Assembly: GCA_035690485.1 (NCBI GenBank)
Contig: DASSKL010000008.1
Location: forward strand, 62,586 to 126,585
DNA from: Mycobacteriales bacterium
GTDB taxonomy: Bacteria > Actinomycetota > Actinomycetes > JAFAQI01 > DASSKL01
Reading direction: 5' to 3'
Length of the DNA: 64,000 nt
The translations under genes and the position numbers were made by a program. The notes below the pieces were generated by a model. That model saw only the letters and a program-made list of their open reading frames with translations, had not been told where the DNA came from and made no database searches. Positions 3,438-40,671 of this stretch are shown here, piece after piece. The stretch's first letter is position 1, and each line of letters opens with the position of its first letter.

Positions 3438-4371
3438 GGCGGGTCCTCGGGTCGAGAAGCGGATAGAGCATGTCCACCAGGAAGTTGACGACGACGAAGC
3501 CGGCGGCCACGACGACGACCGCGCCCTGCACCGCGAGGTAGTCGCGCTGGTAGATCGAGGTCACGGTGTAGTAGCCGATGCCGGGTACGGCGAAGATGTA
3601 CTCGACGATGAACGCCCCGCCGATCAGCGCACCGATGTTGAGGCCCGCGACCGTCGTGAGGGTGAACGTCGAGGGCCGGAACGCGTGGCGCAGCAGGATG
3701 TACGACGTGCTCAGGCCCTTGGCCCGCGCCACCATGACGAAGTCTTCCTGCAGCGTCGCGATCATCTCGGCGCGCAACACCCGCACGTAGACGGCGAGCG
3801 AGCCGACCGCGAGGGTGACCGCCGGTAGGAACACCGATTTGAGGTTCTGCAGCGGATCGTCCCTGAAGTTGGTGTAGCCGGTCGCCGGAAAGAAGTGCCA
3901 GTGGACCGCGAACAGGTAGACGAGCAGCACGGCCACGATGAACGACGGCAGCGACAGCACCAGGAACGCGCCGCCGGTGACGGCGCGGTCGAGGATCCCG
4001 TTGGGGCGCATCGCCGAGATGATGCCGAGCGGGATGGAGATCGCCAGCGCCATCACCTGCGAGACCAGCAGGATCTCCAGCGTCACGGGCAGCCGGGTGA
4101 GCAGCGTGTGGCCGACCGACTGCTTGGTCAGGTAGGAGATCCCGAAGTCGCCGTGCAGGATGCCGCCGAGCCAGTGCCAGTACTGCACGAAGAACGGATC
4201 GTTCAGGTGCAGCTGCTCGCGGATCTGGGCAACCGCCTTGGGCGTCGCGTTGGGACCGAGGATGAGGATCGCCGGGTCACCCGGCAGCAGGCTGATCAGC
4301 CCGTAGGACAAGATCGTGACGACGAGCAGGACGGCGGCCAGCGCCACAAGCCTGCGTCCGATGAACCGCAT
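3424..4371 (-). CDS. ABC transporter permease (DppB/OppB family)
   Basis: 315 aa, 6 TM, N-terminal MRFIGRRLVALAAVLLVVTILSYGL typical of DppB. It overlaps the dppC-like start. Confidence 0.9.
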   Translation of the reverse strand: MRFIGRRLVALAAVLLVVTILSYGLISLLPGDPAILILGPNATPKAVAQIREQLHLNDPFFVQYWHWLGGILHGDFGISYLTKQSVGHTLLTRLPVTLEILLVSQVMALAISIPLGIISAMRPNGILDRAVTGGAFLVLSLPSFIVAVLLVYLFAVHWHFFPATGYTNFRDDPLQNLKSVFLPAVTLAVGSLAVYVRVLRAEMIATLQEDFVMVARAKGLSTSYILLRHAFRPSTFTLTTVAGLNIGALIGGAFIVEYIFAVPGIGYYTVTSIYQRDYLAVQGAVVVVAAGFVVVNFLVDMLYPLLDPRTRHARA

Positions 4372-4455
4372 GTGGCTTCTTTCCGGTGGGGGTTGCCGGT
4401 CGGATTGGAGCGGGGTCCGGAGGCCTGGTCGCCCCAGGCCTCCGGACCCTGACCG

Positions 4456-6162
4456 CTAGGCCTTCAGCCACCACTCCACGGTGTAGGGCGACTGGTTGGA
4501 GAAGATGTTGGCCGCCGGCTTGCCCTCGGGCGTCTGCGTCTTCGCCCAGTTCTGCACCTTCGGGCTGGACGCGATGCCGCTCTCCGGGAAGTAGATCCAG
4601 ATGTAGGGCAGGTCCTTGGCGAACAGCTTCGAGATCTCCTGGTAGGCAGCGACCCGCTTGGTCTGGTCGGTGCTCGTGCGTCCGATCTCGAGCTGCTTCT
4701 GGATCTCCTCGTCGCTGTTGCGGGCGAAGTTCAGCGACAGCGCGCCGACCTTGCCGACCGTGAGCGTGCTCCACCAGATGTAGTTGGCGTCGGGGTCGGG
4801 GCAGGCGAACTGCGTCCAGATGTAGCAGTCGTAGTCGCCGACCAGCGCCTTGGTGATGTATTGCGCCTGCTCGACCTGGTCGATCTGCACGTCGAAGCCG
4901 ACGGCGTTCCACATCGCCTGGGCCAGGGTCACCAGCTGCAGGGTCGACGGGTCGGGCGTGCTGCCGACGTGGAATGCCGGCTTCTTGCCGCCGTTGTCCT
5001 TGCTCCACGCGTCGACCAGCTGCTTGGCCTTCGCCGTGTCCGGAGTCGTCGGGTAGCCGGTGTCGGTGTGGTAGACGTTGCCCTTCGGCCACGGCCCGGA
5101 GACGGGGTACTCACCGACGCCCTTCTCCGCGACCTTGACCAGCTTCGCCTGGTCGGTCGCGTAGGCGAGTGCCTGGCGCAGCCGCACGTCCTTCAGCGGC
5201 TCGGACACGCAGTTGACCTGGAAGAAGACCGGACTCGGCTCGCCGATGACCTTGACCATCGTGTTGGTCAGGAAGTCGACGTTCTTGTCGGCCTTGAAGT
5301 CGAGCACGTTGTCGGCCGAGGTCGCCATGATGATGTCGACGTCGCCCGCCTTGAAGGCGTTCTCCCGCGACTGCGAGTCGGCGATCGGCCGGAACTCGAT
5401 GGCGTCGAGGTGGGGCTTGCCCTGCTGCCAGTAGGTCGGGTTCTTCTTCACCGACAGGTGGTCGTTGGGCTTCCACTCGACGAAGATGAACGGGCCGGTG
5501 CCCACCGGCTGGGTGGAGACGTTGCCCTTCTTGATGGCTGCCGGCGAGACCATGTAGGCCATCTGGCCACCGATCGCGCCGGTCAGGTAGGTGTCGAACG
5601 GCACCCACGACTCGTGCATCGTGAGGACCGCCGCCTGCGGGTCGCTCGGTGAGACGGCGGCCGACTTGAGGTTCAGCAGCGCCGGGCCGGCGAGCGCCGA
5701 CTTCTGCATGGTCGTGACGTTGGCGACGATCGCCGCCCCGTCGAAGGCCTCACCGTCGTGGAACTTGATGCCGTCACGAGCGGTGATCGTCCAGACCGTG
5801 TAGTCGGCGTTGTGCTCGATCGACTTCGCCAGGTAGGGCGCGACGGTGCCGTCGTCCATGAGGATGCCGAGCGCGTCGTAGATCGTGTGCGCGTAGATGA
5901 GGCCGGTGGCGTCCCAGTGGTTGGCCGCCGGGTCGAAGCCGTCGATCTCCGACCACATGCCCATCTTCAGCGTGCCGCCCGCGCGGGGGGTCTCCGACGA
6001 GATGCCGATGTTGGCGGCGTTCGTGCTGGGGGTGTTGTTCGCGCTCTTCTTGCTGCCGCCGCTACTGCCACCGCAGGCGGCAAGCAGGCTGCCGCCGGCC
6101 CCCACTGCAGCGACCGCGGCTGCTGCCTTGGCGCTGCCGGTCAGGAACTTTCGACGGTCCAT
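4456..6162 (-). CDS. ABC transporter substrate-binding lipoprotein, SBP family 5 (peptide/nickel), Tat-type signal
   Basis: Start chosen at MDRRKFLTGSAKAAAAVAAVGAGGSLLAACGG, which carries a twin-arginine motif RRxFL and lipobox LAAC. Family-5 SBP length. The ORF extends 23 codons further upstream. Confidence 0.85.
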   Translation of the reverse strand: MDRRKFLTGSAKAAAAVAAVGAGGSLLAACGGSSGGSKKSANNTPSTNAANIGISSETPRAGGTLKMGMWSEIDGFDPAANHWDATGLIYAHTIYDALGILMDDGTVAPYLAKSIEHNADYTVWTITARDGIKFHDGEAFDGAAIVANVTTMQKSALAGPALLNLKSAAVSPSDPQAAVLTMHESWVPFDTYLTGAIGGQMAYMVSPAAIKKGNVSTQPVGTGPFIFVEWKPNDHLSVKKNPTYWQQGKPHLDAIEFRPIADSQSRENAFKAGDVDIIMATSADNVLDFKADKNVDFLTNTMVKVIGEPSPVFFQVNCVSEPLKDVRLRQALAYATDQAKLVKVAEKGVGEYPVSGPWPKGNVYHTDTGYPTTPDTAKAKQLVDAWSKDNGGKKPAFHVGSTPDPSTLQLVTLAQAMWNAVGFDVQIDQVEQAQYITKALVGDYDCYIWTQFACPDPDANYIWWSTLTVGKVGALSLNFARNSDEEIQKQLEIGRTSTDQTKRVAAYQEISKLFAKDLPYIWIYFPESGIASSPKVQNWAKTQTPEGKPAANIFSNQSPYTVEWWLKA

Positions 6163-10636: not shown

Positions 10637-10669
10637 CGGCCGATCGCCGCCCGCGCGCCGGCGCGCCGC

Positions 10670-11236
10670 TCAGGGCCGGCCTGGGGCGTCCCAGACGGGA
10701 AACCAACGAGACAGATCGTCCTCGATCTTCAAGTCGTCGGCGACCGCCGCGCGGACCTCGAGCTCGACGGTGTTGTCGCGCTTCTGCTCGCCGCTCGGCG
10801 CGAACGGGTACCACGCGCCCCGCTTGTAGAGGTAGACCAGCCCGAGCGGCTGGTGGCCGTCGGTGAACCACACCACCGTGCACAGCAGCAGCGAGCCGAA
10901 GCCGGCGTCGGCCAGCGTCGAGTTGACCGCGTGCAGGTCGGCGACCAGGTCGCTGAGCTCGTCGGGGCCGGTACGCCGGACCAGCCAGGTGAACCCGTAG
11001 GAGTCGGTCTGCTGGGAGAACTTGCCGCCGTCGAGTGCGAGCAGCTGCTGCACCTGGTCGCCGAGGCCCTGGAACGCACCCCCCTCGGCCTTCTTGAACG
11101 CGACGGTCCCGGCGCCCGTCGGGCGGAACGACGTCGAGGCCGACAGCGTCACCGCTGCCGACGGGAGGCCGAACAGCTGGTCGAGGTCGGGCGGGACCGG
11201 CTTCGAGCGACCGAGGAGGGCGTCCAGAAGCCCCAT
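10670..11236 (-). CDS. Conserved hypothetical protein (188 aa), last gene of the pspA-htpX operon
   Basis: Contiguous in-frame ORF directly downstream of htpX. The stop/start overlap at 11236 suggests co-translation. No recognisable catalytic motif. Confidence 0.55.
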   Translation of the reverse strand: MGLLDALLGRSKPVPPDLDQLFGLPSAAVTLSASTSFRPTGAGTVAFKKAEGGAFQGLGDQVQQLLALDGGKFSQQTDSYGFTWLVRRTGPDELSDLVADLHAVNSTLADAGFGSLLLCTVVWFTDGHQPLGLVYLYKRGAWYPFAPSGEQKRDNTVELEVRAAVADDLKIEDDLSRWFPVWDAPGRP

Positions 11237-12156
11237 CAGGCGCCGGGCTGCCCGAGCTCGCGAGCGATCTTGCCGAGCTCGGCGAGCCGCTTGTCGAGGG
11301 TCGGGTGGGTGGAGAACAGCGACGAGATGCTGAAGCCCTTGGCGAACGCCGGGGCGAAGAAGAACGCGTTGAACGGCTCGGCGGAGCGCAGGTCGTTGGT
11401 CGGGATCCGGGCCATGTCGCCAGTGACCTTCGTCAGCGCGGATGCCAGTGCCGACGGCGCACCCGTCAGCAGCGCGCCGGCCCGGTCGGCGGCCAGCTCG
11501 CGGTAGCGCGACAGCGCCCGCGTCAGCAGGAACGACAGCGCGTAGACGACCATCGACACGGCCATCACGGCGAAGACCATCAACGCGGCGTTGTTGTTGT
11601 TGTCGTTGCGCCGGCCGCCGCCGCCGAACATCCCGGCGTAGAGGGTGAACCGGGTGATCATGCCGGCGAGGATGCCGAGGAACGACGCGAACGTCATGAC
11701 CATGACGTCGCGGTGTGCCACGTGCGACAGCTCGTGCGCGAGCACGCCCTCGAGCTCCTCGCGGTCGAGGCGGCGCATGATGCCGGTCGTCGCGCAGACG
11801 ACGGCGCGCTGCGGGCTGCGGCCGGTGGCGAACGCGTTGGGGATGTCGCTGTCGGCGATCGCGACCCTGGGCTTGGGCATGTCGGCGAGCGCGCAGAGGC
11901 GGTCGACGATCGCGTGCAGCTCGGGGGCCTCTTCGGGTGTCACCTCTCGGCCGTGCATCGCGAACAGCGCGATGCGGTCGGAGGCGTAGAACTGGAAGAA
12001 GAGGAACCCCGCGCCCACGACGGCGATGACGAGCGGCGCGACGCTGATCGCGACGAGCGCTGCCATGAACGCGACGAAGAGCAGGCCCAGCAGGAACATC
12101 GTGAGGGCCATGCGGGTCTGGAGTCCGCGGTCTGCGCGGAACCGGGTGGTAGCCAT
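11236..12156 (-). CDS. htpX: Zinc metalloprotease HtpX (peptidase M48)
   Basis: HEXXH motif HELSHVAHRD, 4 TM segments, C-terminal THPTLDKR. Start taken at MATTRFR (ATG 12156..12154), 1 nt after the upstream stop. Confidence 0.85.
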   Translation of the reverse strand: MATTRFRADRGLQTRMALTMFLLGLLFVAFMAALVAISVAPLVIAVVGAGFLFFQFYASDRIALFAMHGREVTPEEAPELHAIVDRLCALADMPKPRVAIADSDIPNAFATGRSPQRAVVCATTGIMRRLDREELEGVLAHELSHVAHRDVMVMTFASFLGILAGMITRFTLYAGMFGGGGRRNDNNNNAALMVFAVMAVSMVVYALSFLLTRALSRYRELAADRAGALLTGAPSALASALTKVTGDMARIPTNDLRSAEPFNAFFFAPAFAKGFSISSLFSTHPTLDKRLAELGKIARELGQPGA

Positions 12157-12157
12157 G

Positions 12158-12436
12158 TCAGCCGGGGATGAGCCCTTCCTCGCCGAGCAGGTCTCTGACC
12201 TCGGCCAGCCCCGCATCGGCGGAGGGCAGGACGAGGTCCGACGGCACGAGCGTGTCGTCGGGCATGGGGACGCCCACCTCGCGCACCCGGCCGAGCAGCG
12301 CGGCCAGAGCGCTGCCGAACGCGCTCTCGTCGTCGCCGTCGACCGCGCGGGCGAGCGCGTCGTCGAGCTCGTTGAGCCGGTCCAGCTCCGCCTCGGGGAC
12401 GTCGAGCTGGCCCTCGCCCAGGATGCGCACGATCAT
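12158..12436 (-). CDS. Small acidic protein (92 aa) between pspA and htpX, candidate PspA-associated protein
   Basis: Start ATG overlaps the pspA stop (ATGA at 12433..12436). Highly acidic (D/E-rich) soluble protein. Confidence 0.55.
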   Translation of the reverse strand: MIVRILGEGQLDVPEAELDRLNELDDALARAVDGDDESAFGSALAALLGRVREVGVPMPDDTLVPSDLVLPSADAGLAEVRDLLGEEGLIPG

Positions 12437-13188
12437 TGATCTGCTCCGGAGCCGCTCTCCACCTGCTTCGGTGCGTCGGCGCCGCCGATCTGCTGCTTCA
12501 TCTTCGCCAGTTCGGCGTCGATGTCGCTGCCCGAGGACAGCTGGTCCAGCTCGTGCTGGATGTCGTCGTCGCGGCTGCCCGGCGGCAGCGACGCGTCGTC
12601 GAGCGCGCCGGAGGCGAGCAGCTCGTCGACCGCGCCGGCCCGCGCCTGCATCTGCAGGGTCTTGTCCTCGGCACGCTGGATGGCGAGGCCGACGTCGCCC
12701 ATCTCCTCGGAGATGCCGGCGAACGCCTCACCGATCTTGCTCTGCGCCTCGGCCGCCGTGTAGGTAGCCTTGATGGTCTCCTTGCGGGTGCGGAACGCGT
12801 CGACCTTCGCCTGCAGCCGCTGCGAGGCGACCGTGAGCTTCTCCTCCTCGGCCTGCAGCGACGCGTGCTGGGTCGCCAGGTCGGAGATCTGCTGGTTGAC
12901 GGCGCCCCGGCGCGACAACGCCTCGCGGGCGAGGTCGTCACGGCCGGCCGTGACGGCCTGCTGCGCCTGCCCCTGAAGCTTGTCGGCGGAACCCTGCAGC
13001 TGCTGCATCTGGATCTCGAGACGCTTACGGCTGGTGGCGACGTCGGCAACCCCGCGACGGACCTTCTGCAGCATCTCCAGCTGCTTCTGGTAGGAGTAGT
13101 CGAGAGTCTCGCGCGGGTCCTCGGCGCGGTCGAGCGCTTTGTTGGCCTTCGACTTGAAGATGAGCGACAGGCGTCGCGCGATGCTCAT
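12433..13188 (-). CDS. pspA: PspA/IM30 family protein (phage-shock protein A / 35-kDa antigen-like)
   Basis: Start at MSIARRLSLIFKSKANKALDRAEDP, the canonical PspA N-terminal amphipathic helix. Coiled-coil body rich in Q/E/R/A. The ORF extends upstream to 13437, but the PspA homology begins at 13188. Confidence 0.85.
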   Translation of the reverse strand: MSIARRLSLIFKSKANKALDRAEDPRETLDYSYQKQLEMLQKVRRGVADVATSRKRLEIQMQQLQGSADKLQGQAQQAVTAGRDDLAREALSRRGAVNQQISDLATQHASLQAEEEKLTVASQRLQAKVDAFRTRKETIKATYTAAEAQSKIGEAFAGISEEMGDVGLAIQRAEDKTLQMQARAGAVDELLASGALDDASLPPGSRDDDIQHELDQLSSGSDIDAELAKMKQQIGGADAPKQVESGSGADQ

Positions 13189-13276
13189 CGGCGTGGTCTC
13201 CCTCGTTCGTCGTGCACACCACAGTAGCCAGCCGCGCGCCGCCCGGCACTCCGTGAACGGTCGGTAACCTGGGTTC

Positions 13277-13870
13277 GTGCCCCTGTTCCGTCCCGGCCGC
13301 GACAGCGCGCCCGTCGACAGCGCTGTCGAGGAAGCGCCCGAGGAGGCGCCGCAGACCGCGGGCAAGGGCCGCCCCACCCCCAAACGGCGCGATGCGCAAC
13401 GCCGTCGACGCGAGGTCGTCAAGGCCCCCACGACCAAGCGCGAGGCCTACCGCCAGCGGCGCGACCGCATCCGCCAGGAGCGACGTGGCCAGCGCCGCGC
13501 GCTGGTGTCCGGCGACGAGGGCAACCTGCCGCCGCGCGACGCCGGCCCGGCCAAGCGCTACGTCCGCGACATGGTCGACAGCCGGCGCAGCATGGGCACG
13601 TTGTTCCTGCCGGCCGCGCTCGTGCTGCTGTTCGCCAGCACGGTGAAGGGCCCGGCGCTCGCGGCGCTGGTCTCGTTCGGCTACGTCGTACTCCTCGGGG
13701 CGATCATCGTCGACAGCTTCGTGCTGTCCCGCAAGGTGCACCGGGCGGTCAGCGAGAAGTTCGGTGAGAAGGCGACCACCGGGGTGCGGATGTACGCCAT
13801 CACCCGGTCGTTGCAGTTCCGCCGGCTGCGCATGCCGCCGCCCAAGGTCAAGCGCGGCGACCGGGTCTGA
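13277..13870 (+). CDS. DUF3043-family membrane protein
   Basis: N-terminal basic region (KRRDAQRRRREV...) followed by two TM helices. GTG start. Confidence 0.65.
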   Translation: MPLFRPGRDSAPVDSAVEEAPEEAPQTAGKGRPTPKRRDAQRRRREVVKAPTTKREAYRQRRDRIRQERRGQRRALVSGDEGNLPPRDAGPAKRYVRDMVDSRRSMGTLFLPAALVLLFASTVKGPALAALVSFGYVVLLGAIIVDSFVLSRKVHRAVSEKFGEKATTGVRMYAITRSLQFRRLRMPPPKVKRGDRV

Positions 13871-13894: not shown

Positions 13895-14893
13895 ATGGAG
13901 TATCGCCACCTGGGCCGCAGCGGCCTGCTCGTGTCCGAGATCGCCTACGGCAACTGGATCACGCACGGCAGCCAGGTGGAGGCCGACACGGCGACCGCCT
14001 GCGTGCGCGCGGCACTCGACGCCGACATCAACTTCTTCGACACCGCCGACGTCTACGCGCAGGGCCGGGCGGAGGACGTCCTCGGTCGGGCTCTCGACGG
14101 CGTGCCCCGCAAGGACCTCGTGCTGGCGACGAAGGTGTTCTGGCCAACAGGCGCGGGCCCCAACGACCGCGGCCTGTCGCGCAAGCACATCTTCGAGTCG
14201 ATCGACGCGTCGCTGCGCCGGTTGCGCACCGACTACGTCGACCTCTACCAAGCGCACCGGTTCGACGTCGAGACACCGCTCGAGGAGACGCTGCACGCGT
14301 TCGACGACCTGGTGCGCGCGGGCAAGGTGCACTACATCGGCGTCTCGGAGTGGACCGCGGCGCAGATCGAGGACGCGCTGCGTATCGCCGACGCGATGGG
14401 CTTCGACCGCATCGTCACCAACCAACCGCAGTACTCCGCGCTGTGGCGGGTCATCGAGGCGGAGGTCGTGCCGCTCTGCGAGCAGGAGGGGGTCGGCCAG
14501 ATCGTCTGGTCGCCGATCGCGCAGGGCGTGCTGACCGGCAAGTACCGTCCCGGCGCCGAGCCGCCCGCCGGCTCGCGGGCGACCGACGCGACCGGCGGCG
14601 GGTTCGTCAAGCGCTGGCTCGAGGACGACGTGCTGACCCGCGTGCAGGAGCTGGCGCCCGTCGCCGACGAGGCCGGGCTGTCGATGGCGCAGCTCGCGGT
14701 GGCCTGGGTGCTGCAGAACTCCAACGTCTCGGCCGCGATCATCGGGGCCTCGCGTCCCGAGCAGGTGAAGGACAACGTGGGTGCGGCGGGCGTACGGCTC
14801 GACGACGCGGTCATGCGACGCATCGACGAGATCCTCGACCCGGTCGTCCAGCGCGACCCCGCGCTCACCGTCAGCCCGCGCAAGCGACCCTGA
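13895..14893 (+). CDS. Aldo/keto reductase (Kv-beta-like AKR)
   Basis: MEYRHLGRSGLLVSEIAYGNW... FFDTADVY... catalytic tetrad context (D, Y, K, H). 332 aa. Confidence 0.9.
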   Translation: MEYRHLGRSGLLVSEIAYGNWITHGSQVEADTATACVRAALDADINFFDTADVYAQGRAEDVLGRALDGVPRKDLVLATKVFWPTGAGPNDRGLSRKHIFESIDASLRRLRTDYVDLYQAHRFDVETPLEETLHAFDDLVRAGKVHYIGVSEWTAAQIEDALRIADAMGFDRIVTNQPQYSALWRVIEAEVVPLCEQEGVGQIVWSPIAQGVLTGKYRPGAEPPAGSRATDATGGGFVKRWLEDDVLTRVQELAPVADEAGLSMAQLAVAWVLQNSNVSAAIIGASRPEQVKDNVGAAGVRLDDAVMRRIDEILDPVVQRDPALTVSPRKRP

Positions 14894-14906: not shown

Positions 14907-15116
14907 TCACTCCTCCCGCAGACTCATCGGGCCGTAGACCTCGCGATCCCCGTCGAGGAGCGTGACCTGCTCCACCCCGGCCGACAGCAGCTCGCGCCAG
15001 TTCTCGCCCACCCAACTCTCGGCGTCGGACCGCGTCGGGAACGCCTCTCCCTGCGGCGCCTCGCGCGGGGAGACCGGCGTCCCGTCGGCCGCCTCGTAGC
15101 GCCAGGTCCAGCTCAT
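14907..15116 (-). CDS. Small conserved protein (69 aa)
   Basis: [15 protein letters not shown]...; ATG overlaps the stop of the upstream kinase gene (ATGA at 15113..15116). Confidence 0.5.
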   Translation of the reverse strand: MSWTWRYEAADGTPVSPREAPQGEAFPTRSDAESWVGENWRELLSAGVEQVTLLDGDREVYGPMSLREE

Positions 15117-15658
15117 CGGTCCTCCGGTCGCTCGTCGGACATAGCGGTGAAGATGCGGTCGGCGATCTCGTCGGGGCTCAGGTCGTCGACGTCGACGATG
15201 TAGGACGCCACCGCGGCGTAGCGGTCGGCGCGCCCGTCGTACAGGCGCCGCAACGCCGTGGCCACGTCGTCGCCCTCGTGGAACCACGGCCGCCCCTCGC
15301 CCGTACCCACCCGCTGCGCCAGTGTCTCGATGCGGGCACGCAGCCAGACGACGAACCCGCCCGCCGCAAGCCGGCGCCGGTCGTCGTCGCTGTCGACGAT
15401 GCCGCCCGCCACCGCGGCGATGACGGGCGCCGGGGCGCGCAGCGCCTCGGTCAGGGCGCGGGACTCCAGGTCGCGCAGCGTGCCGACGCCCTCCTCGTCG
15501 AGCACCTTGTCGGTGCTGCGGCCGCCCGCGCGAGCGACCAACGTGTCGTTGTCGAGGTAGGGCCAGCCGGTGCGCTTCGACAAGGCGGCACCGACCGTCG
15601 TCTTTCCGGCACCCATCATCCCCATGAGCAGGACGCGCTGCGGCGGAGCGGGGCTCAT
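15113..15658 (-). CDS. Shikimate-kinase-family P-loop kinase
   Basis: Walker [10 protein letters not shown], DxD-like [13 protein letters not shown] lid region. 181 aa. ATGA overlap with the gcvT stop at 15655..15658. Confidence 0.7.
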
Positions 15659-38928: not shown

Positions 38929-40671
38929 CTAACCCGCGCTGGACTCGGGGAACACCTGCTCGGCTACCGCGGCCTGCTCGGGCACCGCGACGGAGGGACG
39001 GTAGGTGGGGTGCGTGCGCTCGAGCTGTCGGCGTACACCGCTGACGGTCGCGGGCGAGAGCGGCGCCTCGTTGAGCGCATTGAGGAACTCGTCGCCGGCG
39101 ATGCGCAGCAGCCGGCAGCCGTCGCCTGCCCGCACGGTCGCGGTCCGGGGGATGCGTTCCAGCAGGCCGATCTCGCCGAAGTACGCCGGCGCCTCGAGCA
39201 TCCGCAGGAACTGCTCGCTGACCCCCTCGCCGCGAGCCGACACCTGGACCGACCCGTCGAGCAGGACGTACAGGTCGTCGGCGGCCTCCCCCTCGGTGAC
39301 GATCGGGAGGCCGGGCTCCACCAGCATGTCGCTCCCGGTGCGGGCCAACCGCTCCAACACCGGACGGGAGGCCGAGGCAAAGATGCCGAGCCGTTGGAGC
39401 ACCGCGATCCGCGGTTCCAGGGTCTGCAGCAGGTGCACCGCCTCGCGGTCCATGCCGGCGAGCATCGGGTAGCAGCCGACGACGAGCAGCGGCAGCGCGG
39501 CGCCGTAGACGAGCAACGTGCCGTTGGTGCCCAGACCGTGCAGCAGCGCCGGGGTGATCAGGGCACCGATGGAGATCCCGCCGAGCACGAGGGCCCAGAA
39601 GGCGCCGAACACCCGGGCGATCAGGTCGGGTGCCAACGTGCGCTGCAGCGCGGTGATGGCGAGGGTGTCGACGACGAGCGTGCCACCGCCCCGGATGACC
39701 TGCAGCACGAACGCGATCTCCGGCGAGTGCACCGTGGCCATCACGGCGGTGGGCACGCAGTACACCGCCATCCCGCCGACGATCATCAGCGCCAGCCGCG
39801 GCGAGGCGGCCAGCCGGTTGACCAGCCCGGCGGCGAGGACACCGCCGACGCCGAGCGCGGCCAGCAGGTAGCCGTAGCCGTCCTCGCCAGTTCCGAGCCT
39901 GGTCTTGCTCAGCACGGCGAACAGCACCGTGTCCGTGCCGTAGAAGAAGCTGGCCAGCACGCTGAACCACACGAGGATCGCGGTGCGGCGGGAGGCGACG
40001 ATTGCCCGGTAGCCCACGCGGATCTGCTGCAGCGGCCCGCCGTCCTGGGTCACGTCCGTGGGCACGCTGCGGACGCCGGCACGGCTGACCAGCGCTGCGG
40101 AGACCACGAACGTGCCCGCGTTGAAGGCGATGACGCCGGCCGGGCTCACCGCCGCGAGCATCGCCCCGCCCAGCGCAGGGCCGACGAGGATCGTCAGGTT
40201 GTCGATCGTGCCCTTGAGACCGTTGGCCGCCGCCAGGTCCTTCTCGCCGACGACCTGTGGGATCAGCGCGGACGTCGCGGGGTCGTACGCCGACATCAGG
40301 ATCGAGTTGAGCGCGCCGATCGCGATGACGACGGCCGAGTGCGCGTGCAGGGCCATGGCGGTCGCCATCGCCGCCATCAACCCCGTCGCCGTCAGGTCGC
40401 AGGTGACCAGCACCCGCACCCGTTCGAAGCGCTCGGCGACGACGCCGGCGTAGGAGCTGAAGAGCAGGGCGCTGAGGAACCTGCCGAGGGTGGCCGCGGC
40501 CACCCACGCCGGGGAGTGCGTCTGCTGGTAGACGTAGACCACGAGCGCGACGTTGTAGGCCCAGCTGCCGGTTGCGGAGACGGCGAGGGCGCCGCTGAGC
40601 AGGCGGAAGTCCCGATGCCGCAGTGCACCGCGGTAGGTCCCCCGAGCCTGCCCGGCTACATCCGCGGTCAT
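38929..40671 (-). CDS. MFS transporter fused to a C-terminal cyclic-nucleotide-binding (CAP-family) domain
   Basis: About 12 TM in the first ~430 aa. The C-terminal ~130 aa carry the cNMP motifs FGEIGLL and RTATVRA. ATGA overlap with the upstream MBL gene at 40668..40671. Confidence 0.8.
   Translation of the reverse strand: MTADVAGQARGTYRGALRHRDFRLLSGALAVSATGSWAYNVALVVYVYQQTHSPAWVAAATLGRFLSALLFSSYAGVVAERFERVRVLVTCDLTATGLMAAMATAMALHAHSAVVIAIGALNSILMSAYDPATSALIPQVVGEKDLAAANGLKGTIDNLTILVGPALGGAMLAAVSPAGVIAFNAGTFVVSAALVSRAGVRSVPTDVTQDGGPLQQIRVGYRAIVASRRTAILVWFSVLASFFYGTDTVLFAVLSKTRLGTGEDGYGYLLAALGVGGVLAAGLVNRLAASPRLALMIVGGMAVYCVPTAVMATVHSPEIAFVLQVIRGGGTLVVDTLAITALQRTLAPDLIARVFGAFWALVLGGISIGALITPALLHGLGTNGTLLVYGAALPLLVVGCYPMLAGMDREAVHLLQTLEPRIAVLQRLGIFASASRPVLERLARTGSDMLVEPGLPIVTEGEAADDLYVLLDGSVQVSARGEGVSEQFLRMLEAPAYFGEIGLLERIPRTATVRAGDGCRLLRIAGDEFLNALNEAPLSPATVSGVRRQLERTHPTYRPSVAVPEQAAVAEQVFPESSAG

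Follow-up and report, generated by a model that had tools for sequence, protein, structure and literature searches.

A pspA-pspAA-htpX-pspAB cluster in an actinobacterial contig: a putative membrane-stress operon of two conserved gene pairs

When a membrane-stress effector and a membrane protease are encoded in one uninterrupted row of genes, do their products belong to a single system or to two systems that are only neighbours? The question is raised by a 64,000-nucleotide (nt) stretch of contig DASSKL010000008.1 from a Mycobacteriales bacterium (72% GC; hereafter the window), in which, with coordinates checked on the sequence, the genes pspA, pspAA, htpX and pspAB lie consecutively on the minus strand at 10670-13188. 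The ESCRT-III superfamily of membrane-repair proteins has its bacterial branch in the PspA family. PspAA and PspAB are abundant and highly conserved families; the locus offers a compact test case for two ideas: that PspAA tunes PspA polymerisation, and that PspAB regulates a protease or bridges it to PspA. The best explanation for the cluster as a whole, to which we assign a probability of roughly 0.75, is a four-gene membrane-stress operon made up of two conserved pairs, pspA-pspAA and htpX-pspAB.

Four families in one minus-strand block

Profile searches match each of the four proteins, full length and above the cut-off, to a curated family. PspA residues 5-233 align with positions 4-217 of the 220 in PF04012 (PspA_IM30; E 8.3e-27, 94.7 bits, cut-off 33.9), while the protein falls below the proteobacterial PspA equivalogs (TIGR02977, 68.3 bits with a cut-off of 242.95; NF007974, 31.7 bits with a cut-off of 336). 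On these scores it is a PspA-family protein and not an E. coli-type ortholog; its N-terminus, MSIARRLSLIFKSKANKAL, has an amphipathic look, judged by eye only. HtpX residues 3-303 cover positions 2-297 of 298 in the NCBIfam model NF002669 (E 4e-140, 466.1 bits, cut-off 341), and the protein also matches PF01435 (Peptidase_M48; E 3.8e-35), with a match to the related M56 family below threshold. The motifs HELSH (141-145) and RELAAD (219-224) leave the zinc site and the downstream Glu ligand intact, and hydrophobic segments at 12-60, 150-170 and 188-216 lie on both sides of the catalytic domain; HtpX is predicted to be a zinc protease that spans the membrane four times and keeps its HExxH...E site. 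Proteases of the HtpX class degrade misfolded membrane proteins.

The two small proteins are equally well placed. PspAA aligns over residues 1-92 with all 92 positions of PF22743 (119.9 bits, cut-off 27, E 5.7e-35), and PspAB over residues 1-185 with positions 1-188 of the 189 in PF22742 (227.9 bits, cut-off 27, E 1.1e-67). PspAB has more than 7,119 homologs and PspAA 3,482; an exhaustive profile search finds 1,105 PspAB representatives at 50% clustering. The PspAA family was defined by an absolutely conserved Arg and Asp and by three helices with a small beta-sheet (Ravi et al. 2024, PMC11237479). In an alignment of 33 sequences with a mean column identity of 83%, R4 and D25 are invariant, and the AlphaFold2 model (predicted local distance difference test, pLDDT, 89.4) runs from a beta-hairpin through two long helices to a strand and a final short helix (strands 2-5, 9-12 and 68-70; helices 15-33, 37-54 and 77-83). 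The window protein thus has the Arg/Asp pair, the fold and the place directly 3' of pspA, with a 4-nt overlap, that characterise the family. Its isoelectric point is 4.05 and it has no hydrophobic segment. Comparison of the model with the PDB gave no informative structural neighbour, and its sequence found only non-significant matches there (E at least 0.11).

The first-pass annotation of this DNA, made from the letters alone, had the coordinates and stop/start overlaps exact to the base when read on the minus strand. It had also suspected, but could not confirm, that the 92-amino-acid (aa) product is PspAA, and the Pfam check that it proposed bears this out. The same check overturns its description of the 188-aa product as lacking any recognisable motif, since that protein is a full-length PspAB.

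Could the small open reading frames (ORFs) nevertheless be accidents, and their overlaps the product of chance in a GC-rich genome? Spurious long ORFs are common at high GC, the ORF list holds several of this type antisense to the cluster, and tight overlaps are common in the window. Against this stand the full-length Pfam matches, thousands of homologs of conserved length, a third-position GC content of 0.94-0.95 in the assigned frames, confident AlphaFold2 folds and a position that is kept across genera; the explanation is effectively refuted. Public gene calls on four soil-metagenome contigs with an identical PspAA give the same layout and Pfam labels, with products of 251, 92, 306 and 188 aa, except that htpX is called at 291 aa in three of the four. 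The annotated PspAA of a Mycobacteriales metagenome-assembled genome (MAG) is likewise identical, and in the species-representative set the MAG of an uncultured Actinomycetota bacterium comes closest, at 74-82% protein identity.

The start of htpX requires some care, as the longest ORF begins at 12216 and the start of the 306-aa form lies at 12154-12156. A motif upstream of Met16, (T/S)R(F/Y)xPDRGLTxRM, is conserved in essentially every related locus, and the alignment to the NCBIfam HtpX model begins at residue 3 of the 306-aa form; on both grounds the 306-aa start stands, and with it the TGAcATG junction to pspAA. Three of the public htpX calls (L081, L082 and L084, at 4326-5201, equivalent to window 11236-12111) begin instead at Met16 and give 291 aa. 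They drop 15 conserved residues and mask the tight pspAA/htpX junction, and this looks like a systematic start-site miscall in public annotation.

Junction geometry alone says little in this genome: a crude ORF map of the window gives at least four other same-strand overlaps of 1 nt or 4 nt (1366, 2463-2466, 15655-15658 and 40668-40671). Tight overlaps are by themselves unremarkable here, and it is their conservation across genera that goes beyond chance. The ribosome-binding signals divide the cluster in two. A Shine-Dalgarno sequence, GAGGGAG, precedes pspA at 13198-13204, and GGAG lies 7 nt 5' of the pspAA ATG; no Shine-Dalgarno core was found 3-14 nt before the start of either htpX or pspAB. 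In termination-reinitiation, genes that have no ribosome-binding site of their own are translated by ribosomes ending on the upstream gene, and the absence of a core at htpX and pspAB fits coupling of this kind for the last two genes. From the junction sequences, translational coupling in the window is plausible, and reinitiation is the mode that we would, on balance, expect for htpX and pspAB.

Two conserved pairs across eighty loci

Neither the arrangement nor the two small families is new. PspAA and PspAB were defined by Ravi et al. (mSystems 2024, 9:e00847-23, PMC11237479), who list the architecture 'PspA->PspAA->TM(s)+Metallopeptidase+TM(s)->PspAB->' for Frankia sp. EAN1pec (Franean1_2534) and Thermobifida fusca (Tfu_1009) and describe the predicted operon as two dyads that occur together, PspA-PspAA and metallopeptidase-PspAB; they also cite a permuted order in Moorella and a Methanosarcina example. 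The published operon, likewise from Actinobacteria, agrees with the window locus in its four families, in their order and in their common strand, and nothing essential differs; an optional SHOCT-like third gene given in that paper is absent from the window. The window locus is therefore another instance, clean and maximally compact, that adds nothing categorically new in itself. What the present analysis adds is the junction geometry, adjacency statistics and a structure model of PspAB, together with new details on that protein: a fold without a catalytic Cys/His, fusions to PspA, Clp_N and TPR regions, and PDZ, STAND and TIR neighbours. Another large survey of Psp systems makes no mention of HtpX.

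To place the locus in context, the four window proteins were mapped onto 80 genome loci that encode PspAB relatives, drawn from many actinobacterial families. HtpX lies directly 5' of PspAB in 79 of them; the exception (L048) is a contig of 1.7 kb with no HtpX match in the 887 bases upstream. The complete four-gene order is present in 37 loci, each with a PspA ortholog (65-82% identity) in the same position, and two further loci are cut within or before PspAA. This order spans Frankiales-like lineages, Dermatophilaceae, Kineosporiaceae, Streptosporangiales, Catenulispora, Actinospica and some Streptomyces. The 4-nt overlap of PspA and PspAA recurs in 35 of the 37. Between HtpX and PspAB the gap is no more than 10 nt in 41 of 78 loci and no more than 30 nt in 58, and between PspAA and HtpX it varies, 20 of 38 loci being at or below 10 nt. 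In this lineage, then, the cluster is two conserved pairs joined in one tight block.

Several claims of the first-pass annotation can be read against this survey. The neighbourhood comparison that it named as a check finds both small ORFs conserved in position across genera, and the PspA-HtpX linkage that it ascribed to comparative surveys is indeed in the literature (Ravi et al. 2024, PMC11237479). Its view of pspA through htpX as a single translational unit holds for the window as far as four abutting genes on one strand are concerned; as a general rule an obligate unit fails, the 80 loci resolving into two pairs.

How might the four products act together? PspA would polymerise on damaged membrane and seal or remodel it. 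As the start of pspAA overlaps the pspA stop, the two proteins are probably made together, and it is probable, if by a modest margin, that PspAA binds PspA and tunes its assembly. HtpX would degrade misfolded membrane proteins, with PspAB most likely serving as its cytosolic regulator or adaptor. Transcribed as one message from a promoter within the 88-nt region 5' of pspA, the genes would provide membrane repair along with proteolytic clean-up, and htpX and pspAB would rely on ribosomes that finish the preceding gene. That the window cluster is expressed as one stress-induced transcript starting 5' of pspA is very probable in our judgement.

A number of observations weigh against this operon. 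First, in 36 of the 80 loci HtpX and PspAB form a pair without PspA or PspAA within several kb and without any other conserved neighbour; these loci include all Kribbella and most Streptomyces, Kitasatospora and Streptacidiphilus. Second, the PspAA/HtpX spacer is 121-253 nt long in 13 of 38 loci, and several of the long spacers combine a hairpin after pspAA with a promoter-like motif before htpX. As the pairs are apart in about half of the loci and may be widely spaced where they adjoin, the two can work separately. Third, a sigma-70 consensus scan of the window returned no promoter, and the window contains no confident promoter. Fourth, a literature search found no expression, interaction or activity data on PspAA or PspAB. 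Finally, PspA-PspAB fusion proteins are rare (two clusters), and one of them is encoded beside a TIR-domain gene, not HtpX.

The main rival builds on the first two of these points. It holds that PspA-PspAA repair and HtpX-PspAB proteolysis are independent modules, co-regulated only, with no physical or mechanistic link. In addition to the isolated pairs and to the 13 four-gene loci with long spacers, the pspA-pspAA pair of Streptomyces sits with a two-component system instead, and the block of aldo/keto reductase, DUF3043 and pspA through to nadA shows synteny from one order to another, and some of the adjacency may therefore reflect old gene order. However, the four-gene order recurs in many lineages, a different order is found in Moorella and there is a Methanosarcina example (PMC11237479), fusions of PspA to PspAB do exist, and a PspA remnant 5' of htpX in one Streptomyces locus suggests an ancestral four-gene state. 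We therefore regard independent modules as a serious competitor, with a good deal less than an even chance of being correct, and retain the operon of two pairs as the better explanation.

The remnant lies in a dyad-only Streptomyces locus (L063, 5922-5999), where 26 codons of a PspA N-terminus (69% identity) are found just 5' of htpX; the sequence suggests that pspA-pspAA was lost there from an ancestral four-gene cluster. A search of the long PspAA-HtpX spacers for a SHOCT-like or other small gene yielded no conserved ORF. Dyad-only loci likewise gave no extra conserved partner of HtpX-PspAB, only genus-level synteny. Two Streptosporangiales-like groups carry conserved motifs in the PspAA-HtpX spacer, in both cases 3' of the hairpin that follows pspAA: CAAACCAT...GATGTAATGAAG in one (L027, L031, L046) and GGAATTTTC...GTGATACTGGAT in the other (L057, L062, L067). 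From their sequence and position these look like dedicated htpX promoters or regulator-binding sites.

PspAB as a putative binding module

The AlphaFold2 model of PspAB (pLDDT 85.3; predicted template modelling score 0.82) is an alpha/beta sandwich that follows a flexible, conserved N-terminal peptide, MGxxDxLxGR; no hydrophobic or transmembrane segment is present, and the sequence has no match in the PDB. Structural resemblance to ESCRT accessory proteins is unconvincing for PspAA and PspAB alike, and we draw no function from either predicted fold. Across 57 PspAB sequences, down to 32% identity, the only invariant residues are D78, W84, R153, E158 and W178, and a YPFAP loop is nearly invariant. 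A Cys/His catalytic dyad was considered and rejected: H102 and C119 are invariant in close homologs and lost in divergent members. The lack of a conserved Cys/His, a confident globular model and the absence of a transmembrane segment favour a binding role over that of a hydrolase, and the sequences argue for PspAB as a non-catalytic binding module, not a thiol or histidine hydrolase. On sequence and model, both small proteins of the cluster are soluble, globular and apparently non-catalytic.

PspAB is almost never found in the survey without htpX directly upstream, and we consider it probable that it is a cytosolic regulator or adaptor of HtpX. A dedicated non-catalytic partner that controls a membrane protease has a counterpart in E. 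coli, where FtsH has the accessory regulator HflKC; the proposed HtpX-PspAB relationship shares that idea. HtpX itself is known from E. coli as an M48 zinc protease with a cytosol-facing active site that is induced by envelope stress.

A different possibility is that PspAB is no adaptor, but a stoichiometric inhibitor or latch that silences HtpX until membrane stress releases the protease. Near-obligate adjacency to HtpX, junctions tight enough to favour linked synthesis and the lack of conserved catalytic residues are all in keeping with such a role. Yet a Foldseek search does not bear it out, and the PspAB core is also reused where no M48 protease is nearby, in fusions to Clp_N, TPR and PspA regions, which speaks for a more general binding or sensing module. 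An inhibitor accordingly appears improbable beside the regulator or adaptor that we favour.

These fusions were found in the representative set, where the PspAB core forms the C-terminal part of some longer proteins, always without the N-terminal peptide. In P0289 (486 aa; L088, 5001-6461), two PspA-like repeats precede the core, and the N-terminal half is 41% identical to window PspA (E 1e-33). P0390 (441 aa), from another data source, has the same PspA-PspAB architecture and is 52% identical to P0289 over the full length. The gene for P0289 lies on a 94-kb contig, directly 3' of a gene for a 639-aa TIR_2-domain protein. None of the PspAB entries tabulated in the supplement of Ravi et al. has the PspA-PspAB architecture; PspA-PspAA fusions are reported in the same work (Ravi et al. 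2024, PMC11237479). Taken together, the two kinds of fusion indicate that both accessory proteins can be covalently joined to PspA, and at the level of sequence the PspA-PspAB proteins, rare as they are and encoded in other gene contexts, are the best available argument that PspAB may work with PspA as well as with HtpX.

Apparent fusions of HtpX to PspAB did not survive closer inspection. In L031 and L033 tblastn had aligned across a stop, and both htpX genes end normally; the M48+PspAB proteins P0258, P0374 and P0392 are encoded on contig fragments or, at L090, beside an htpX whose 5' half was left uncalled. Given an htpX/pspAB junction of 1-4 nt, such proteins are treated as indel artefacts and not as Rosetta-stone evidence.

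The remaining fusions extend the range of the core. It is joined to Clp_N repeats in P0323 (L089) and P0381 (L085, 2359-3801; L086, 775-2217), to TPR repeats in P0296 (L091), and elsewhere to an N-terminal region of no known family. P0381 is encoded 5' of two genes, one for a PDZ protein and one for an nSTAND NTPase longer than 1,400 aa, P0372 (L092, 6001-7272) is encoded 3' of a gene for a 1,694-aa PDZ protein, and the PDZ proteins beside the fusions measure 395 and 1,694 aa. Domain architecture and gene context suggest that putative conflict or quality-control systems devoid of HtpX have taken up the PspAB core as a portable module.

Might the window cluster itself then serve in conflict or in defence against phage, and not in housekeeping stress responses? 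Divergent PspAB-core proteins do stand beside TIR (L088), PDZ and nSTAND NTPase (L085, L086) and large PDZ (L092) genes. The four window proteins, however, have no match among the PADLOC-DB 2.0 defence models, the cluster sits in a conserved core-genome block (nadA, aldo/keto reductase, DUF3043) and not in an island, and the proteins from conflict contexts are distinct fusion architectures that lack the N-terminal peptide. We consider a defence function for the window cluster highly improbable, and keep to a stress operon.

Within that operon, a direct bridge by which PspAB would bring HtpX to PspA-marked membrane is a tentative and rather doubtful proposal. In its most developed form, PspAB would be a PspA-binding adaptor that couples HtpX to PspA-coated damaged membrane, its core a portable recognition module and MGxxDxLxGR a docking element; the last assignment follows, under this adaptor reading, from the replacement of the peptide in all fusions, which leaves it to standalone PspAB. 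We think it unlikely that all of these parts hold jointly. If they do, sealing of the membrane and removal of damaged proteins would take place at one site, a bacterial counterpart of ESCRT-linked membrane-protein disposal, and D78, W84, R153, E158 and W178 with the YPFAP loop would form the recognition core. Should the PspA-PspAB fusions and the reuse of the core beside TIR, PDZ and STAND genes hold up, they would outweigh the locus itself in importance.

Control signals, flanking genes and known Psp systems

The positions of the genes, junctions and candidate signals are collected in Table 1. With a divergent DUF3043 gene on one side and a convergent nadA on the other, the cluster cannot hold further genes. 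Searches of the window for Rfam families and tRNAs found none.

Table 1. Genes, junctions and candidate signals of the cluster and its flanks (window coordinates)
Feature	Position	Strand	Description
pspA	12433..13188	-	251 aa, ATG start; PspA/IM30-family (ESCRT-III-like) membrane-stress effector
pspAA	12158..12436	-	92 aa; PspA-associated protein A, acidic, cytosolic
htpX	11236..12156	-	306 aa; M48-family integral-membrane zinc metalloprotease
pspAB	10670..11236	-	188 aa; PspA-associated protein B, soluble alpha/beta protein
pspA stop/pspAA start ATGA overlap	12433..12436	-	CAATGATCG; TGA and ATG share 4 nt
pspAA/htpX TGA-c-ATG junction	12154..12160	-	GGCTGACATGGCT, also read as CTGACATGG; one base between
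htpX/pspAB TGATG junction	11234..11238	-	GCCTGATGGGG, also read as CCTGATGGG; base 11236 common to both
pspA 5' region, shared with divergent DUF3043 gene	13189..13276	-	88 nt
Candidate -10 hexamer TACTGT	13221-13226	-	read from the sequence upstream of pspA
nadA/pspAB convergent spacer	10637..10669	.	33 nt; GC palindrome GCGCGCCGGCGCGC at 10653-10666, without T-tract
DUF3043 membrane-protein gene	13277-13870	+	divergent; 88 nt from pspA start
Aldo/keto reductase gene	13895-14893	+	beyond DUF3043
nadA	ends 10636	convergent	33 nt from pspAB stop

Upstream of pspA, related loci have the actinobacterial -10-like hexamers TAGGGT, TAGGCT or TACGCT at a position comparable to that of the window candidate, and a GGGA or GGAG Shine-Dalgarno sequence at a comparable position; we infer a promoter in the 88-nt region only from resemblances of this kind. 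At the other end, the palindrome GCGCGCCGGCGCGC folds into a strong stem, although the terminator scan of the window did not call it, and we infer that the 33-nt spacer holds the 3' end of the operon because the neighbouring nadA is convergent.

A sigma-E or other extracytoplasmic function (ECF) promoter for window pspA was sought and rejected, as there is no GGAAC-N16-18-CGT within 300 nt. Elsewhere, 7 of 36 loci have GGAAC-N16-18-CGTT ahead of pspA and 9 of 37 dyad-only loci have it ahead of htpX, in both cases against 1.8% of shuffled controls. Carriers include L026, L034, L053, L079 and L080 for pspA (about 90-115 nt 5' of the gene) and L040, L061, L070, L072, L076, L033 and L060 for htpX (about 120-170 nt 5'). 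The motif points, if faintly, to ECF sigma factors as regulators in some lineages.

Comparison with characterised systems shows which parts of the cluster are shared. In Streptomyces coelicolor, sco2168-2167 (pspA-pspAA) is the same pair as in the window and is listed as one unit; it is a sigma-E target, assigned by experiment to the cell-envelope stress regulon. There, a histidine kinase and a response regulator lie downstream of pspA-pspAA in place of HtpX-PspAB, and the window differs in that a motif of the sigma-E type is missing from the 300 nt next to pspA. The Mycobacterium tuberculosis operon clgR-pspA-rv2743c-rv2742c is also an actinobacterial PspA operon with lineage-specific partners; these are ClgR, PspM and PspN (DUF3046), and PspAA, HtpX and PspAB are all missing.

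With pspF/pspABCDE of E. coli the window cluster has in common the PspA/IM30 effector fold and a membrane-stress role. It lacks PspB, PspC and PspF, its neighbours being DUF3043, an aldo/keto reductase and NadA; its four proteins match no Pfam families other than those given above, and its PspAA and PspAB are unrelated to E. coli PspB and PspC. In E. coli, htpX is transcribed by itself under Cpx control and has neither a PspAB-like partner nor a link to pspA. HtpX of the window is of the NF002669 (PRK02391) type, as opposed to the enterobacterial NF003965. In ESCRT-III, as here, a superfamily polymer (PspA in the window) has small dedicated partners encoded alongside, and both PspAA and PspAB are on occasion fused to the C-terminus of PspA, but the cluster has no Vps4-type AAA+ ATPase or MIT domain, unlike the ESCRT-III systems of archaea and eukaryotes.

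The flanks of the cluster are themselves conserved. A DUF3043 gene is divergent from pspA in 25 of the 37 four-gene loci, from several actinobacterial orders (among them L001, L011, L012, L020, L022, L023, L026 and L027); the same aldo/keto reductase usually follows, and nadA is often convergent downstream. This arrangement could be old core-genome synteny or a functional link via the shared promoter region. Beyond the aldo/keto reductase, a 69-aa ORF at 14907-15116 on the minus strand overlaps by 4 nt the stop of a shikimate-kinase-like gene (15113-15658); it has no Pfam match, and the public contigs annotate it as a gene.

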